Source of the DNA: an uncultured virus (IMG/VR IMGVR_UViG_3300043435_001124)
Lineage: Duplodnaviria; Heunggongvirae; Uroviricota; Caudoviricetes
Length of the DNA stretch: 20,000 bases
Virus record (IMG/VR): IMGVR_UViG_3300043435_001124
Strand: one strand, 5' to 3'
In this document: positions 12,733 through 20,000 of the stretch, piece after piece
Layout: every line of letters begins with the position of its first letter
How positions within the stretch are numbered: the stretch's first letter is position 1
The notes under the pieces: model-generated
What the model saw: the letters and a program-made list of their open reading frames with translations, nothing else
Told to the model about the DNA's origin: nothing
The model's database searches: none
Program-made: the position numbers and the translations under genes

Positions 12733-13179
12733 TTAAAAAAGTTCGTTTTCTGTAATGACTTTGAACTTTATCATTCTATCTTCACACCACTCCACGATGG
12801 ATTTCCATTTTGATTGATTAACGGCATAAGTATTCACTTCATTAATATAAGTTTTATTTTTCTTTTTTCCTTGTACTGGCGGTACTGTTTGTCTTTTTGG
12901 TTTTATTTCTATTACATACTTTTGTATTTTTCCATTATCTTCTAACATTTCTACAATAAAATCCGGAAAATATCTACATACTTTTTCTTTTACTGGATTA
13001 TAATATGGTATAGAAAATTCTTCAGACCCATATCTTAATATATTTGGAGACCTATCACACCACTGCATAAACTTAAGTTCCCAACTGCTGCGGTAGATTA
13101 TATTTTGAACGTCTCCAATATATTTTTTTGGATTTCTTGGATTAAATCTACCCTGATGATATTTTGAATCACGAGGCAT
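12733..13179 (-). CDS. gp4: Head completion protein gp4 (TnsA-like nuclease fold)
   Basis: YRSSWE..FM.WCD, SEE..IPY, YFPDF, IEIKP, N.SKW and ITENEL motifs. Confidence 0.92.
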   Translation of the reverse strand: MPRDSKYHQGRFNPRNPKKYIGDVQNIIYRSSWELKFMQWCDRSPNILRYGSEEFSIPYYNPVKEKVCRYFPDFIVEMLEDNGKIQKYVIEIKPKRQTVPPVQGKKKNKTYINEVNTYAVNQSKWKSIVEWCEDRMIKFKVITENELF

Positions 13180-13633
13180 TTTTCCATCCTTTATGTGATT
13201 TTCTTTTTCCAGAAAGAACAGAACCTAATTTTGATGGGTTTAAATTTAATTCTTTACTTATATGAGTTATGCAATCAAATTCAACTATTTCCCCATCCTT
13301 AGAAATTATTTTTCCTCCTTTTTGTAGATGTGGATAAGTATGTCCTTTATTATGTGCAGGTTTTCCTCTTCTTTTTTCTACAGATGCTTTAATTGCTTTA
13401 CTCATATCCCTTCCACTTTTCGCTTCTCTCATCAATTCCAAAGTTTCTTCAGAATAGATTCCAATTTTTCCTTTATTCCAAGGAGTGTGATTTTTTTCAA
13501 ATCCTCCAAGAGAATTGTTAATTTTTTCTACGGAATCAATATATTCTATTTTAATAATTTCACTACCATCAATATTAAAAACATCACATAATGTTTTAGT
13601 ATTCCAGTATTCTACTTTTTTTATATTTGACAT
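13169..13633 (-). CDS. NUMOD3/HTH DNA-binding protein related to homing endonucleases, with no recognisable nuclease domain
   Basis: PWNKGK...YSEETLELMREAKSG and GKPAHNKG repeats, C-terminal HTH ending SVLSGKRKSHKGW. No GIY-YIG or HNH motif seen. Confidence 0.75.
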   Translation of the reverse strand: MSNIKKVEYWNTKTLCDVFNIDGSEIIKIEYIDSVEKINNSLGGFEKNHTPWNKGKIGIYSEETLELMREAKSGRDMSKAIKASVEKRRGKPAHNKGHTYPHLQKGGKIISKDGEIVEFDCITHISKELNLNPSKLGSVLSGKRKSHKGWKNAS

Positions 13634-13640
13634 ATTGAAC

Positions 13641-13648
13641 TATAAATA
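13641..13648 (+). promoter_or_regulatory. T4-type late promoter TATAAATA for the tail-tube-like gene
   Basis: Exact consensus, 26 nt upstream of ATG 13675. Confidence 0.85.
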
Positions 13649-13665
13649 TATAATAAACTGTAGAA

Positions 13666-13673
13666 TATTTATA
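13666..13673 (-). promoter_or_regulatory. T4-type late promoter TATAAATA for the NUMOD gene and gp4
   Basis: Exact consensus on the - strand, 32 nt upstream of ATG 13633. Confidence 0.8.
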
Positions 13674-13674
13674 G

Positions 13675-14556
13675 ATGGCTGCGCCTCGCCCAAGTAGAGT
13701 TAAATTAAGTGAAATAAAAACTAAGTTACTGAGACCAGCATTAACCTCTCATTATATTTGCGACTTTCAACCACCAGATTCTGCAAATGGTTTTTTATTA
13801 GCAAGAGTACTTAATACACCAACAAAAAGAGCAGATAGATTATCTCTCGCTTGTTCTGATGCGTCTCTTCCGGGATCTTCCTTACAGACTCACGATATTA
13901 CTAATGATTTTACCGGAGTTACTGAAAAACACGCATATCGCCGCTTGTATGACGACAGAGCAGATTTTAGTTTTTATGTAGATGCTGAGGAATATTATGT
14001 AATTGATTTTTTTGAATCTTGGATTGGATATACTGTGAATGAACAATATGGAGAAAATGGGGTAAATATTGAAAGGAGAGCGTATAATTACCGTGTCAAT
14101 TATTCAAAATATTATACTACTGATGCTCTTTCTATCACAAAGTTTGAAAGATCTTATGGTACTCAAGAAGCAAAAGGAAGTTCTTCGTTAAGATATAATT
14201 TTGTGAAAGCATTTCCGATTAGTATTAATTCTATGCCAGTATCTTATGATTCCTCACAGTTACTTAAATGTACGGTCTCATTTACTTATAGTCGTTATTG
14301 GATTCAAGGATTAAATCTACGAGGAAAAACTGGCGAACCTGGTCAAACACCTGACACTGGAGTACCAAAATCTCAATTTGATATAACTCCACAAAAACTG
14401 GCAGAAGTAAATTCAAACTTTGGATTTACTTCAAATGTAGCATTAAGTAAAGGTAATATTTCTCCTGGCACAGTATTTGATACTCAATTGAGAACTGAAT
14501 CTCTTTTGGATAGTAGTGCTTATGGATCTCGATTAAGAGATATACCTCTTTTTTAA
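13675..14556 (+). CDS. Tail-tube-fold protein (gp19/gp54-like baseplate tail-tube initiator)
   Basis: LACSDASLPG, FFESWI and Y.FVKAFPISINSMPVSY...LKCTVSFTY motifs of the gp19/gp54 family. Confidence 0.8.
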   Translation: MAAPRPSRVKLSEIKTKLLRPALTSHYICDFQPPDSANGFLLARVLNTPTKRADRLSLACSDASLPGSSLQTHDITNDFTGVTEKHAYRRLYDDRADFSFYVDAEEYYVIDFFESWIGYTVNEQYGENGVNIERRAYNYRVNYSKYYTTDALSITKFERSYGTQEAKGSSSLRYNFVKAFPISINSMPVSYDSSQLLKCTVSFTYSRYWIQGLNLRGKTGEPGQTPDTGVPKSQFDITPQKLAEVNSNFGFTSNVALSKGNISPGTVFDTQLRTESLLDSSAYGSRLRDIPLF

Positions 14557-14570
14557 TTTAGCATAATCAT

Positions 14571-14578
14571 TATAAATA
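14571..14578 (+). promoter_or_regulatory. T4-type late promoter TATAAATA for gp26 and downstream genes
   Basis: Exact consensus, intergenic, 29 nt upstream of ATG 14608. Confidence 0.85.
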
Positions 14579-14607
14579 AAGTAACTGAGTTTCTATATAA
14601 AGAAATT

Positions 14608-15324
14608 ATGCTTCCTAAAATTGCTACACCAACTTATGAACTTGAGTTGCCATCAACTGAGCAAACTATAAAGTTTAGACCGTTTCTAGTGAAAGAAGAA
14701 AAACTTCTTGTAATTGCACTAGAATCGGAAGATACTAAACAGATTACAAATGCAATCAAAACAGTCATTAAGAATTGCATTGAAACCAAAGGAATTAAAG
14801 TGGAAACACTTCCTACTTTTGATATTGAATATTTGTTTTTAAATATTCGTGCCAAGTCAGTTGGAGAAGAAATTGATGTAAATATCATTTGCCCTGATGA
14901 TGAAGAAACTAGTGTTTCTGTTAAAATTAATGTAGATGATATTAAAGTTCAAACAAATGAAGATCATACAAATAAAATAAAACTTGATGATACTTTAATG
15001 ATGGAAATGAAATATCCTTCATTGGAACAATTCATTAAGAATAACTTTGATATTTCAAATAATAGTGCAATTGACCAATCATTTGAACTTGTTGCATCTT
15101 GTGTGAATAAAATCTATAATGAAGATGAGGTATGGGCAGCTGCTGATGTGACTAAGAAAGAACTTATGGATTTCTTGGATCAAATGAATACTTCTCAATT
15201 TAAACAGATTGAAAAATTCTTTGAGACTATGCCTAAGTTATCTCATACTATTAAAGTAAAAAATCCAAATACTGAAGTTGAAAGTGAAGTTGTTCTTGAG
15301 GGTCTATCAAGTTTTTTCGCTTAG
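14608..15324 (+). CDS. gp26: Baseplate hub assembly protein gp26
   Basis: LPKIATPTYELELPS, FRPFLVKEEK, FDIEYLFLNIRAKSVGE, MKYP, FFETMPKL and EGLSSFF motifs. Confidence 0.92.
   Translation: MLPKIATPTYELELPSTEQTIKFRPFLVKEEKLLVIALESEDTKQITNAIKTVIKNCIETKGIKVETLPTFDIEYLFLNIRAKSVGEEIDVNIICPDDEETSVSVKINVDDIKVQTNEDHTNKIKLDDTLMMEMKYPSLEQFIKNNFDISNNSAIDQSFELVASCVNKIYNEDEVWAAADVTKKELMDFLDQMNTSQFKQIEKFFETMPKLSHTIKVKNPNTEVESEVVLEGLSSFFA
15298..15318 (+). promoter_or_regulatory. Candidate -1 ribosomal frameshift site (internal SD-like GAGGG plus T_TTT_TTC)
   Basis: Heptamer 15312-15318 is correctly phased in the gp26 frame. The -1 frame reads TTT TTT CGC TTA GGA ATG into gp51. Confidence 0.65.
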
Positions 15325-15326
15325 GA

Positions 15327-15506
15327 ATGGTTCATATGGATCTTGAGAGTTATTTTAAATTGAATTTCTCATTGATGCAGTATCATAAATATTCATTAAC
15401 AGAGATTGAAAATTTGATACCTTGGGAAAGAGATGTTTATGTGGAACTTCTCAAGCAACATATAGAGGAAGAAGAGTCCAAACAGAAACTACAAGGTAAT
15501 GGATAG
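15327..15506 (+). CDS. gp51: Short baseplate hub assembly catalyst gp51-like ORF (59 aa)
   Basis: Manual translation MVHMDLESYFKLNFSLMQYHKYSLTEIENLIPWERDVYVELLKQHIEEEESKQKLQGNG. YSLTEIENLIPWER motif. Missed by the ORF track. Confidence 0.88.
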   Translation: MVHMDLESYFKLNFSLMQYHKYSLTEIENLIPWERDVYVELLKQHIEEEESKQKLQGNG

Positions 15507-18327
15507 TAATCCAGGAAAAACTTCTACAGAAAATATTAACGAAGTAATTCTTAGATTGCTGAGGTTAAAATCTGGAACGGAACTGGATTATCAGACTTAT
15601 GCTAAAAAAATAAAAATTAAATTAGCATCTTCAAGAATGGTGGGAGCATTTATTCCTGCCGAAGAAGATATATTATTAAGAGAAGAGTTTAAGAGAGTTA
15701 GAAATAAAGAAGGTAGATTTGTAATATTAACGAGTAAAAAAACAAAAGTATCTTCACCTCCACCACCTTCAGGATCTAGTGGAGGTGGTGGATCTCCTCC
15801 AAAAACAGGATCAATTGTAAAAGCAAAATCCGGAAAAATAACTGCAGATAATTATTATTATCAAAATTATGTTGAACCAGTAAATGTAAAAGATGTAACT
15901 AAAAATGTTGCAAAAGTTTCTAAACAAACAGATCCATTAATAAGAATAAGTGACATTCTTGATTCAATATTAGAAACTTTAACTAATATTAATAATTTTG
16001 ATAGAGAACAAGCAACCAGACAGAGAACAGATGCTGAAAATAGAAGAAGAGGTCAAAGAGAAACTGATTTAGAATCAAAACCATTTGAGGGAATTAAAAA
16101 AGCATTATCTGCAATTACAAAACCATTCCAATCAATATGGGATAAAATTGTTAATTTTATTACTAATGTTATTCTTGGTAGAATAGTAATTAAGTTACTT
16201 GAATGGTTTGGTGATCCTAAAAATCAAGAAAAAATACAAAGTATTATAAGATTCTTAGGAGATCACTGGCCCACTCTCTTAGCATTATACTTAAGATTTG
16301 GAACTGGTATTGGTAGATTTGTTGGGAAATTAACTAGATCATTAGTAAAGGGATCATTTAAACTTGTTAAACTTGTTGCTGGACTTGCTGCAAAATTAGG
16401 ATTAAAACGAGCAGGAAAAATAGCATCATTTCTTGGTGGACCAAGAGGAAAAGCAATAGCAACTGGTGTTGGAATTGCTGCTGATGTTGCTGTTACTGCT
16501 GGAACTGCATTTGGTGCAAGTAAACTATTTGGTGGAGAAGATAAGAAGCAAGAACCTGTTGCTCCAGAACCAGTTCAACAATTCTCTGGTGGTGGTAGTG
16601 TAAAAATACCGAAGTTTGCTGGTGGGGGGTTTGCAAACTTTGGTAATATGTTTAAGGGAGCAGGAATGGGTTCAATGTTTGGACCTATGGGAATGCTTGC
16701 TGGTGCTGCATTGGGATCTGGTAAACCTCAAGAAATGTTTAGTGGTCTTGTTAAAGGCCCAGGTGGACCAAAAGATGATAAGATTCCTGCAAATCTTAGT
16801 AATGGTGAATTTGTTATGTCTGCCGGTGCCGTTAAGAAGTATGGTGTAGGTACTTTAGAATCAATGAATGCTGCTGGAGGTGGTACTAATATTCCAAAAA
16901 TTGCAAATGGTATTGTTCATGCTGCTGGTGGTGGTTATGTTGGGATGGATGTTGAAAAAGGACATAAATTATGGATAGAATACCTTAATAACAATCCAGA
17001 TGCAACTTCTCGTGGAGGAAAACTTTATGATCGCATAGATCCCAAGACAAGAGAACCTATTAGTGATAATTATAAAAAATATCATAGACAATTTATGCGG
17101 GAGTATATGAAAAATGGAAAACCCCCAGAATGGGCGAATATTAAATCAAAAACTACTAGAGTGAGTTCTCCATCTCCAGGATCCACACAGACACCACCAA
17201 CATCTTCTAGACCACCTTCATCAACTTCAAGTGCAAGACCTCAACCTGGTGTGGGACTTTCTACAAATGCAAAACCACCAGTTCAAAAAATTAACACAAA
17301 TATGAACGTCCCTGGTGGTCGTATTCGTGGAGGTTCTCTTTCTGCGATAATGATGGCCCTTGAAATGAAGCAAAGAAAAGATGAGGGGCAAACAAATGTT
17401 CAAGCAGGATTAGGAGCAGGAGGTTCTGCCTTGGGTGGTCAACTTGGTTGGATGGCAGGAGCAAAAGCAGGTGCAGTTGCTGGAGCAGCACTTGGAACTA
17501 TTGTTCCGGGAGTGGGAAATGGTGTCGGTGCTGCTGTTGGTGCAATCGTGGGTGGTCTTGCTGCTGGTTATGGTGGAGCAATGTTGGGAGGAAAACTTGC
17601 TGATAATATTTCTGGAGTAAATGCGGTAAAGGAAAGAAATAGTCGTGGTGGAATTGGTGGTTCAGTTGTTGGTGGATATGGATTAAAGAAGCAGGAATTT
17701 AAAGATGCTCCTAAAACATCAATAATAACTGATGATAAGGGAAGACCTTCTATTGGACATAAAGCATTAAGAAATGGAAAATTACATTATGTGAGGGGTC
17801 CTCAACCAGGAACTGGTACTAAAAATCCATTAGAAATGCTTGGTAGATTTATTAATCCAAGTGCTTATAAGGAAAATGATGCAAAACTTGAGAGACAAAA
17901 GCATAAAGAAGCAATGGTAAATGCATTAGAGGGTTATCAAGCACAAAACATGGCCCCTGACGCTCAAGCAAGAATGATGAAACAAATGGGTGGAAATCTA
18001 AAAGATGTTCAAAATGATTTGAATTATAGAAACAAACCTAAACCCAAACCTAATTTAACTAGAAGACAAGAAGATATTGCAAAATATAAGGCATCAATGG
18101 GACCAAAATATTCTGCTGCAAATATATCTTCATCGCAACGACGAAGAACACCAAATATAACACCTTTACCAAGACCAAAACCAAAACCAATAGTTGCTGG
18201 TGGTGGAAGTGGTGGAAGAAGGGGAGGTGGATCAAGACCATCATCAGGTTCAAGAGTACCGTCTCATAGTGCAACACATAGTAGGGGAACTTCTCTTTCA
18301 GCAACTTCATTGGGGATTTGGGTATAA
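15499..18327 (+). CDS. Large tape-measure-like / baseplate-hub-associated virion protein (942 aa)
   Basis: Coiled coil, amphipathic helices, glycine zipper, and the GPGGPKDDKIPANLSNGEFVMSAGAVKKYG motif common in tape-measure proteins. Follows gp26/gp51. Confidence 0.7.
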   Translation: MDSNPGKTSTENINEVILRLLRLKSGTELDYQTYAKKIKIKLASSRMVGAFIPAEEDILLREEFKRVRNKEGRFVILTSKKTKVSSPPPPSGSSGGGGSPPKTGSIVKAKSGKITADNYYYQNYVEPVNVKDVTKNVAKVSKQTDPLIRISDILDSILETLTNINNFDREQATRQRTDAENRRRGQRETDLESKPFEGIKKALSAITKPFQSIWDKIVNFITNVILGRIVIKLLEWFGDPKNQEKIQSIIRFLGDHWPTLLALYLRFGTGIGRFVGKLTRSLVKGSFKLVKLVAGLAAKLGLKRAGKIASFLGGPRGKAIATGVGIAADVAVTAGTAFGASKLFGGEDKKQEPVAPEPVQQFSGGGSVKIPKFAGGGFANFGNMFKGAGMGSMFGPMGMLAGAALGSGKPQEMFSGLVKGPGGPKDDKIPANLSNGEFVMSAGAVKKYGVGTLESMNAAGGGTNIPKIANGIVHAAGGGYVGMDVEKGHKLWIEYLNNNPDATSRGGKLYDRIDPKTREPISDNYKKYHRQFMREYMKNGKPPEWANIKSKTTRVSSPSPGSTQTPPTSSRPPSSTSSARPQPGVGLSTNAKPPVQKINTNMNVPGGRIRGGSLSAIMMALEMKQRKDEGQTNVQAGLGAGGSALGGQLGWMAGAKAGAVAGAALGTIVPGVGNGVGAAVGAIVGGLAAGYGGAMLGGKLADNISGVNAVKERNSRGGIGGSVVGGYGLKKQEFKDAPKTSIITDDKGRPSIGHKALRNGKLHYVRGPQPGTGTKNPLEMLGRFINPSAYKENDAKLERQKHKEAMVNALEGYQAQNMAPDAQARMMKQMGGNLKDVQNDLNYRNKPKPKPNLTRRQEDIAKYKASMGPKYSAANISSSQRRRTPNITPLPRPKPKPIVAGGGSGGRRGGGSRPSSGSRVPSHSATHSRGTSLSATSLGIWV

Positions 18328-18333
18328 TAAGAA

Positions 18334-20000
18334 ATGGCAAACCTAGTACCGCACTCAAAATCATCTATAATTAAACCAAAACAATCTGCAATCATCAAAG
18401 CAGATAAGTTTTTAAATGCGAAGACAAAATCAACAAAAGTAAATGAAAATTCAGTTAAACCAAAACAATCTGCAATCATCAAAGCAGATAAGTTTTTAAA
18501 TGTAAATCCAAAATCAACAAAAGTAAACGAAAATTCAGTTAAACCAAAACAATCTGAAAATTCTTCTGAAGATATTATTTTACAAATAGAAAAAAAAGTT
18601 ATAAAGATTGATAAACTTTTAAAGGATTCTTTTGCTCTTAAAAAGAAGCAACAAAAAAAATCAACAATCAAAGAAGAACAAAAAGAATTTGAAAATAGAG
18701 AAAAAGAATTAGAAAAGAAAAAACCAAAGAAAGAACCAGGAATAAATTTACCAACTCTCCCTAAAATGGGATTTATAGATTGGATTAAGAACTTTGTTTT
18801 TAATACTATCTTGGGATTTCTTGCTGTTCGCTTAATAAAGTTCTTACCTACACTATTAAAAATCTACCCAGTTATTATAGGTGCTGGCGAATTTTTAATT
18901 AATGTTGGTGGCAACTTACTGAATAGTTTAGTATCTTTTGTTGATTGGGGATACAAGGCAGTTGATGCAACTAGTGGATTTATAAAAAGTATTGGTGGTG
19001 AGGGATTATCAAAGGTTTTTGATAATTTTACGGGTGCAGTTGATAATGTACTTGAATTTGCCGTGATGGCCGCTCTCTTATCTTCGGGTGGTGATGATGA
19101 GAGTGGTGGTCTTGGTGGTAAAGGTGGAAAACGAGGATATGATTCTCAAGGAAGAAGAGTTGGTAAGAATGTACAACAAAGATATGAAAGAAGATTTGGA
19201 AAAGATAAATTTGTAGATAGATTTGGTACAAAAAATTTAAAAAATGTAGCACAAGGTGCTAGAAGAGGAGCATTTCAGCAAGGTACTCGTAATGCTTTTG
19301 TTGGTCTTGCTGGTAAAGGTGGAGCAAAATCTATTCTTAAATTTGTAAGACCGTTAACTAATAAATTACCTATTATTGGTGGATTATTAAATTTTGGACT
19401 TTCTGTTGCATTAGGTGAAGATCCTGGTAGAGCTGCTTTTAAGGCAATTGGTTCTACTCTTGTAGGTGCTCTAGGTGCCGCAATTGGTTCTCTTGCCTTT
19501 GGTGTTGGTGGTATTATTGGTGGTATTATTGGTGGTATTGGTGGTGATGCATTAGGTGGTGCTCTTTATGATATGTTTTTTAAGGGAAAAAAACCAACTC
19601 AAAAACAAGGAAAGACAAATAAACTTGCGGGAGGAGGATCACCAATACCTCCTACAAGAGGAGGAAAATCTTCTAGTTCAACTCCAAAGAGAACATTAAA
19701 GAAAAAGAAATCAACAAGAACCTTAACATTTACTCCCAGAAAGATACATCCGGGAAGAAGTTCTGGTGGTGAAGCAAAAGTTCAATCAGTATTTCCAAAT
19801 CCAGAAAAGAAGGCATGGTGGGATCCTCTTGGAGTTTTTACTGGTAAAAAACAAGAACAACAACCTCAACAGAAAAAACCAAAAGGAAAGACTGCAAATC
19901 CTCAAGAGTTTTTGATAAAGAGTAATGATATTTTTGGAAGAGCAAAAGGAACTGCTGGTAAAATGATCAGCGGGTTTTCTACTTACATTATCAAATCATT
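18334..20000 (+). CDS. Second large tape-measure-like protein, 3'-truncated by the window edge (>555 aa)
   Basis: ATG 18334 (MANLVPHSK...) with frame 1 open to the window end. Coiled coil, IDWIKNFVFNTILGFLAVRL helix, LPIIGGLL...GAAIGS...GGIIGGIIGGIGG glycine zipper. Absent from the ORF track because it has no stop. Confidence 0.75.
   Translation, partial: MANLVPHSKSSIIKPKQSAIIKADKFLNAKTKSTKVNENSVKPKQSAIIKADKFLNVNPKSTKVNENSVKPKQSENSSEDIILQIEKKVIKIDKLLKDSFALKKKQQKKSTIKEEQKEFENREKELEKKKPKKEPGINLPTLPKMGFIDWIKNFVFNTILGFLAVRLIKFLPTLLKIYPVIIGAGEFLINVGGNLLNSLVSFVDWGYKAVDATSGFIKSIGGEGLSKVFDNFTGAVDNVLEFAVMAALLSSGGDDESGGLGGKGGKRGYDSQGRRVGKNVQQRYERRFGKDKFVDRFGTKNLKNVAQGARRGAFQQGTRNAFVGLAGKGGAKSILKFVRPLTNKLPIIGGLLNFGLSVALGEDPGRAAFKAIGSTLVGALGAAIGSLAFGVGGIIGGIIGGIGGDALGGALYDMFFKGKKPTQKQGKTNKLAGGGSPIPPTRGGKSSSSTPKRTLKKKKSTRTLTFTPRKIHPGRSSGGEAKVQSVFPNPEKKAWWDPLGVFTGKKQEQQPQQKKPKGKTANPQEFLIKSNDIFGRAKGTAGKMISGFSTYIIKS
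18371..18556 (+). repeat. In-frame 84-bp tandem repeat, about 2.2 copies (28 aa unit KPKQSAIIKADKFLNxxxKSTKVNENSV)
   Basis: Units start at 18371, 18455 and 18539 with TTAAACCAAAACAATCTG and differ at only a few positions. Confidence 0.95.

Follow-up and report, generated by a model that had tools for sequence, protein, structure and literature searches.

We analysed a window of 20,000 nt from an uncultured virus (IMG/VR record IMGVR_UViG_3300043435_001124), a piece of a T4-like phage genome in which gp32, gp53, a gp48-like gene, gp4, PhoH and thymidylate synthase are present. The best cultured relatives of its gp26 are cyanophages (81% and 72% identity), and DNA near-identical to the window is carried by lake-water metagenomes (17 runs). 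The gp26-like protein was recognised by Pfam as PF12322 (E 3e-76, 256 bits, with a cut-off of 24.5) and by PHROG as phrog_150 (E 4e-81). A search of NCBIfam returned 0 families for six proteins, and Pfam contains no family for the C-domain encoded in the -1 frame behind gp26. The features of the region are collected in Table 1. Upstream of gp26 lies the motif TATAAATA, which, from T4 biology, we take to be a late promoter; its consensus occurs within 90 nt upstream of gp26 in only 12 of 120 representatives.

Table 1. Features in and around the gp26-gp51 junction of the window
Feature	Position	Strand	Basis or remark
Tail-tube-family gene, probably a gp54-like paralogue	13675..14556	+	PF23849 E 1e-12; phrog_45 E 1e-30
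T4-type late promoter consensus TATAAATA	14571..14578	+	29 nt 5' of gp26 start
gp26-like gene, predicted short chaperone form (TAC-N), 238 aa	14608..15324	+	PF12322, phrog_150, chaperone structures
SD-like GAGGG within Glu-Gly codons, likely stimulator	15298..15302	+	9 nt 5' of heptamer; codon bias
Slippery heptamer T_TTT_TTC (Phe-Phe), putative -1 shift site	15312..15318	+	In frame; one codon 5' of stop
-1 frame extension (TAC-C), 62 codons past the putative shift	15318..15506	+	phrog_634 E 7e-28; T4 gp51 alignment
gp26 stop TAG	15322..15324	+	-1 frame: inside Leu/Ile/Val codon
Annotated gp51-like ORF, 59 aa	15327..15506	+	Part of TAC-C from ATG 15327
Candidate 5-bp hairpin over ATG 15336	15329..15342	+	10 nt 3' of heptamer; clade-limited; two G-U pairs here
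942-aa gene, likely chaperone client	15499..18327	+	Start overlaps TAC-C stop; local tape-measure matches

An initial annotation, made from the sequence of the window alone, had proposed that a programmed -1 frameshift fuses gp26 to the gp51-like ORF. Its coordinates for the end of gp26, the heptamer, GAGGG, AGGA and the two ATG codons all hold on recheck. The fusion itself stands: between the TGA at 15297-15299 and the last position of the gp51-like ORF, 15506, the -1 frame contains no stop. The shifted product is computed to be 299 aa long, not about 298. AGGA at 15323-15326 adjoins ATG 15327 and sits 9 nt 5' of ATG 15336. An in-frame T_TTT_TT is found at 4 of the 5139 codon positions of 20 window ORFs, and the sole case near a stop is the end of gp26. 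Contigs from both of the DNA runs compared match positions 14500-15700 without any difference or gap (depth ~100 and ~40; either run is possibly the source of the window).

We identified relatives of this junction with five gp26 queries against IMG/VR (at most the best 80 matches for each), together with 13 of 60 listed phage records and T4. The 335 loci examined, with the window included and T4 left out, gave 325 usable loci and 246 distinct junctions; six of the others ran off the contig end, three had a short flank, and one (Mendera) had no C-domain match, although its -1 frame is open and its heptamer present. T4-type phages with two full genes are absent from this set, as the queries did not reach them, and the junctions share kinship, so that counts overstate their independence. 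All 246 distinct junctions place the C-domain in the -1 frame, which continues past the gp26 stop without interruption, and 244 of the 246 contain an in-frame T_TTT_TTN. The conserved heptamer, constant -1 phase and stop-free linker for which the initial annotation had suggested aligning T4-like junctions are thus seen across the set. The two exceptions, Vibrio phage D504 (A_CTT_TTC) and Serratia phage Kevin (G_GTT_TTC), recorded as loci L091 and L093, are Ackermannviridae-like and have the same -1 phase; their relaxed sites perhaps represent single-tRNA or weaker slippage.

Within the 244 heptamers, the seventh base is C in 199, T in 24, A in 20 and G in one, the codon 5' of the T run occurs in eight variants that all end in T, and the second Phe is replaced by Leu only as TTA or TTG (21 cases). 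Other Phe-Phe or Phe-Leu pairs of the gp26 genes contain the run in 12 of 421 cases, and the chance of keeping it, calculated from codon usage, is 0.30-0.38 per gene. The T run is retained by 43 of 43 representatives below 60% identity, for which the joint probability of 1e-22 is too strong, the sequences being kin. A -1 frame stop directly precedes the heptamer in 16 of the 244 junctions, and a shift would therefore be confined to the heptamer. At loci L062 and L064, a synonymous change creates a -1 frame TAG in this position, and a shift further upstream is not possible there. In five junctions (L251, L285, L301, L303 and L319), the gp26 stop lies 24 nt 3' of the heptamer, which is still in the register of the C-domain; the short form of these loci would be seven residues longer, and the two frames overlap over a longer distance.

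We compared the two parts of the locus with the corresponding proteins of T4. T4 gp26 consists of PF12322 alone, and T4 gp51 of PF12322 over residues 1-201 and phrog_634 over residues 147-246. The N profile of the window family aligned end to end with T4 gp26 (probability 99) and with residues 6-187 of T4 gp51 (probability 90), and the -1 frame profile aligned in hhalign with residues 200-244 of T4 gp51 (probability 77, E 2e-5, one gap), beginning at the second Phe of the slip site. Because the N and the -1 frame profiles both align to T4 gp51, this protein is, as judged from the profiles, the putative frameshift fusion encoded in a single frame. This agrees with the earlier suggestion that the gp51-like ORF is the T half of a G/GT pair of tail chaperones, as does the match of gp26 to a chaperone fold.

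This fold was identified with an AlphaFold2 model of gp26 (mean pLDDT 90, 69 sequences), for which the best three of 48,161 chains were 3FGX, 2OB9 (HK97 gp13) and 3KLU, at Z 8.1, 7.5 and 7.4. The match lies within residues 1-95, with 84-86 residues aligned at an rmsd of 3.6-4.0 Å, and the Z scores are moderate, the next kind of structure reaching Z 4.2. All three chains are named as tail assembly chaperones in a published account (PMC9603447). A Foldseek search of the same model against the PDB was non-significant, with no match at E 0.001 and 2OB9 in fourth place at E 0.58, and the gp26 profile found nothing below E 0.16 among PDB sequences. The structural comparison, made with gp26 where the initial annotation had called for the fusion, returned chaperones as its top three matches, and from fold, homology and the lambda model we infer that the gp26-like protein acts as a tail assembly chaperone.

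We investigated the sequences flanking the heptamer for possible stimulators of a shift. The initial annotation had noted GAGGG 9 nt 5' of the heptamer, within the 9-14 nt at which internal SD sequences stimulate -1 shifting in dnaX, and an SD-like 4-mer is found 5' of the heptamer in 69 of 69 near relatives (54 under a strict definition). At the Glu codon 14 nt ahead of the heptamer, 69 of 105 representatives use GAG, compared with 32 ± 4.5 expected, and only three of 105 have GAA-GGT there, the commonest spelling of Glu-Gly at other pairs (22 of 50). The energy of the duplex with the anti-SD gave a modest signal, with 80 of 120 representatives below the null (-7.6 vs -6.2; control windows -0.5 to +0.8), and the codon counts are better evidence for the bias than this energy. 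The codon pattern indicates selection on the RNA for an SD-like sequence, beyond the need of the protein, and its spacing from the heptamer is that of dnaX. GAGGG is too far from either ATG to serve in initiation, and its predicted function is probably to aid the slip.

Downstream of the heptamer, we additionally identified a candidate hairpin that was absent from the sequence-only reading. It was tested in near relatives defined by identity (85 rows, 69 representatives), in which 84.6% of cells are paired and all five pairs have two-sided changes; the pairing exceeds that of 500 shuffles and six slid controls, in a comparison favoured by the helix having been chosen by eye in the same sequences. 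Above 55% identity, folding is stronger than in synonymous shuffles for 32 of 35 and 14 of 16 representatives, compared with 10-23 of 35 and 7-11 of 16 for the control windows (four per band). Below 55% identity there is no folding excess (12 of 31 and 21 of 38 representatives), and the junction of the window shows no advantage over shuffles (z -0.3 to -0.9); on these two results a family-wide hairpin was rejected. RNAalifold predicted no consensus structure at the hairpin site, and the hairpin energy is -2.8 vs -1.7 kcal/mol, the latter being that of the window. The candidate hairpin may aid the shift in the clade of the window. It may instead damp internal initiation at ATG 15336, since the helix covers this ATG and 10 nt is a long spacer for a stimulatory element. 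That the selected internal SD, U_UUU_UUN and the clade hairpin over a retained AUG together form a full bacterial-type cassette, undescribed in T4-like phages, appears rather doubtful; such a cassette would give three products (the short form, the long form and a free C-domain throttled by the hairpin) in a ratio tuned by clade.

The start of the -1 frame was examined for signs of independent initiation. Of 244 junctions, 112 lack ATG among the initial 14 codons of this frame, and 73 lack ATG, GTG and TTG alike. On a quick tree of 120 representatives, the presence or absence of ATG changes 17 times, at least nine of them on well-supported branches. A complete relative of 258 kb, with a gp26 89% identical to that of the window, has a linker without ATG and a single copy of each domain, and no second copy of gp26 or of the C-domain was found in three of three complete relatives. 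The linker codons show the coding-type conservation upstream of the ATG that the initial annotation had named as a check (0.77/1.44/0.46 bits by codon position), with a coding pattern at codons 5-7 and the His of codon 7 retained in 110 of 120 representatives. Among the 244 junctions, gp26 terminates with TAG in 180, far more often than the downstream ORF (35 of 244) or other window ORFs (2 of 26); this preference is consistent with a requirement for G to encode Ala or Gly in the -1 frame, in which the codon over the stop is Leu in 100 junctions, Ile in 95 and Val in 49.

Two separate genes are annotated, with the shift unmarked, in 12 of 12 annotated relatives, as would be expected if translation of the gp51-like protein always began independently, either at its own start or by re-initiation once gp26 has terminated, with the T run reflecting a conserved Phe-Phe end and nothing more. 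ATG 15336 is retained in 63 of 69 near relatives in the clade of the window, T4 gp26 also has Phe-Phe near its C terminus with no -1 partner gene behind it, and stop-ATG overlaps (TGATG or TAATG), which also fit coupled translation, occur in 5 of 13 annotated phages, several of them distant. Phe-Phe, however, leaves T_TTT_TT unforced, as the per-gene chance given above shows, and 73 junctions have no start codon among the initial 14 codons of the -1 frame. Even where ATG 15336 is kept, an SD-like 4-mer precedes it in only 12 of 63 near relatives, and drift in phase would be expected of separate genes, whereas none of the 246 junctions drifts. We therefore consider two independently translated genes very improbable as the sole source of the C-domain. 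A free small product of 56 aa may nevertheless be made from ATG 15336 in this genome, since that ATG is kept in the clade and AGGA lies 9 nt 5' of it here. In the record of Aeromonas phage Ah1 (L089), the C-domain frame at 1617-1784 begins without a nearby ATG and carries no annotation, and in PP712906.1 (L092) a gp26 homologue by Pfam and PHROG at 874-1722 is labelled deoxynucleotide monophosphate kinase, likely a shifted annotation.

The same frame would be reached if RNA polymerase, instead of the ribosome, slipped on the T run and added an extra U to some mRNAs, and the invariant part of the site is indeed its six Ts, the seventh base being variable. Slippage in transcription mostly needs runs of 8-9 or more, the T run always stands in X_XXY_YYZ codon phase, and the ribosome is implicated by the SD-type bias 9 nt 5' of it. 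RNA contigs show no indel at the T run, these contigs coming from relatives (5-7% of words) and being blind to rare variants. Polymerase slippage is, in our estimation, a very improbable source of the long product. Finally, the break falls at a homopolymer and the T4 homologue is in-frame, as might also result from an error in sequencing or from the recent splitting of a gene; however, all 246 junctions, among them those of cultured isolates, have the identical break, and the probability of either is negligible. An assembly slip or sequencing artefact as the cause is refuted, because the assemblies from two DNA runs agree base for base and the phase is constant across relatives.

The initial annotation had placed the gene pair between tail tube and tape measure genes, which holds only roughly: the upstream gene belongs to the tail-tube family, and the downstream gene has only local matches to tape measures. 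Three tail-tube-family paralogues are present in two of two complete relatives, and the gene 5' of gp26 is not the top-scoring one; it belongs to this family but is probably distinct from the main tube gene. The 942-aa downstream gene matches tape-measure families (phrog_25241, phrog_3547 and others) only in short stretches, with E values of 2e-10 or weaker, and the neighbours of the gp26/gp51 pair vary among other phage groups. This gene (15499-18327) and the next (18334-20000) are long, look related and stand in tandem; both contain a helical region as well as Gly-rich stretches, and the second has a near-duplicated stretch of 26 residues at its start; the tape measure protein may be either of the two.

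Between gp4 and the tube-family gene, overlapping the start of gp4, we noted a 154-aa ORF on the minus strand (13169-13633), one end of which resembles NUMOD/I-HmuI DNA-binding regions and which weakly matches HNH families. Pfam recognises no nuclease domain in it, and it may therefore be the remnant of a homing endonuclease. A perfect sigma-70 consensus (TTGACA-16-TATAAT, 13627-13654) is overlapped by two facing late-promoter motifs TATAAATA (plus strand at 13641, minus strand at 13673) in the 41 nt that separate the divergent genes here.

The frame arrangement, its conservation, the homology to T4 gp26/gp51 and the predicted fold are observed or computed; we infer a ribosome shift, its rate, the two stimulators and a chaperone role in this phage. 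We consider it very likely that tandem tRNA-Phe slippage at the heptamer, helped by SD-like pairing, yields a minority long chaperone. A single late gene would then give rise to two tail assembly chaperones. Most translation would terminate at TAG, yielding the short form of 238 aa (TAC-N, the equivalent of T4 gp26), and a minority of ribosomes would slip by -1 on U_UUU_UUC, with two tRNA-Phe moving from UUU-UUC to UUU-UUU, and add 62 codons to produce the 299-aa long form (TAC-NC, the equivalent of T4 gp51). GAGGG 9 nt upstream would probably promote this slip, and within the clade the small 3' hairpin might do so too. On the model of lambda gpG/gpGT, the tape measure protein would be coated by the short form and tied to tail assembly by the long one, in a short:long ratio set by the shift.

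In lambda, gpG and gpGT are the short and long products of a -1 slip near the stop, upstream of the tape measure, and the window is alike in its predicted slip near a stop, 5' of a tape-measure-like gene. The lambda slip site, G_GGA_AAG, differs from U_UUU_UUC in the window; the 238-aa short form of the window additionally has ~140 residues beyond the chaperone fold, its long-form tail is 62 aa, and its upstream gene is a tube paralogue. The chaperone fold itself is common to the gp26 model and HK97 gp13 (2OB9). In E. coli dnaX, an SD-like sequence ~10 nt 5' of A_AAA_AAG and a strong hairpin accompany a shift that leads to a shorter product. The window is similar in its SD-like sequence ~10 nt 5' of the heptamer and its possible 3' stem-loop, whereas its heptamer, T_TTT_TTN, does not match that of dnaX, its shift would lengthen the product, and its hairpin is weak and clade-limited. 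T4 gp26 (208 aa) and gp51 (249 aa) share the PF12322 family with the gp26 of the window; in T4, however, they are encoded by two full, divergently oriented genes, in place of one gene with a 62-codon -1 tail.

Vladimirov, Gautam and Davidson (Virology 2022) reportedly treat T4 genes 26 and 51 as chaperones and describe frameshifting in several other T4-like groups. In a later paper, poly-T sequences are given as "-1 frameshift signals" in "TAC-N genes of T4-like phages", with credit to Vladimirov 2022 (PMC12846349), and a passage of another states, with the same credit, that some T4-like phages instead carry the long form as a fused gene of its own beside a short one (PMC10885494). As far as these passages go, the frameshifted chaperone reading is already described computationally for T4-like phages (2022) and the present locus is a further example, so that the possible novelty raised in the initial annotation falls away. 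Open-licence papers, searched by title and start of abstract, included none treating the gp26-gp51 junction, and no experimental test of the T4-like poly-T shift was found in the accessible literature. The SD-type codon bias and the clade-limited hairpin may be new, as a small addition.

The picture of tail assembly, already drawn by the 2022 paper, is unchanged by these results. They would identify an annotation error across T4-like cyanophages and related groups, in which the ~55-aa "gp51 baseplate hub assembly catalyst" would be the tail of a 300-aa frameshift product and the label "baseplate hub subunit gp26" would be replaced by that of a chaperone. The junctions additionally provide a large natural alignment for a putative U_UUU_UUC shift site, with two candidate stimulators that can be tested.
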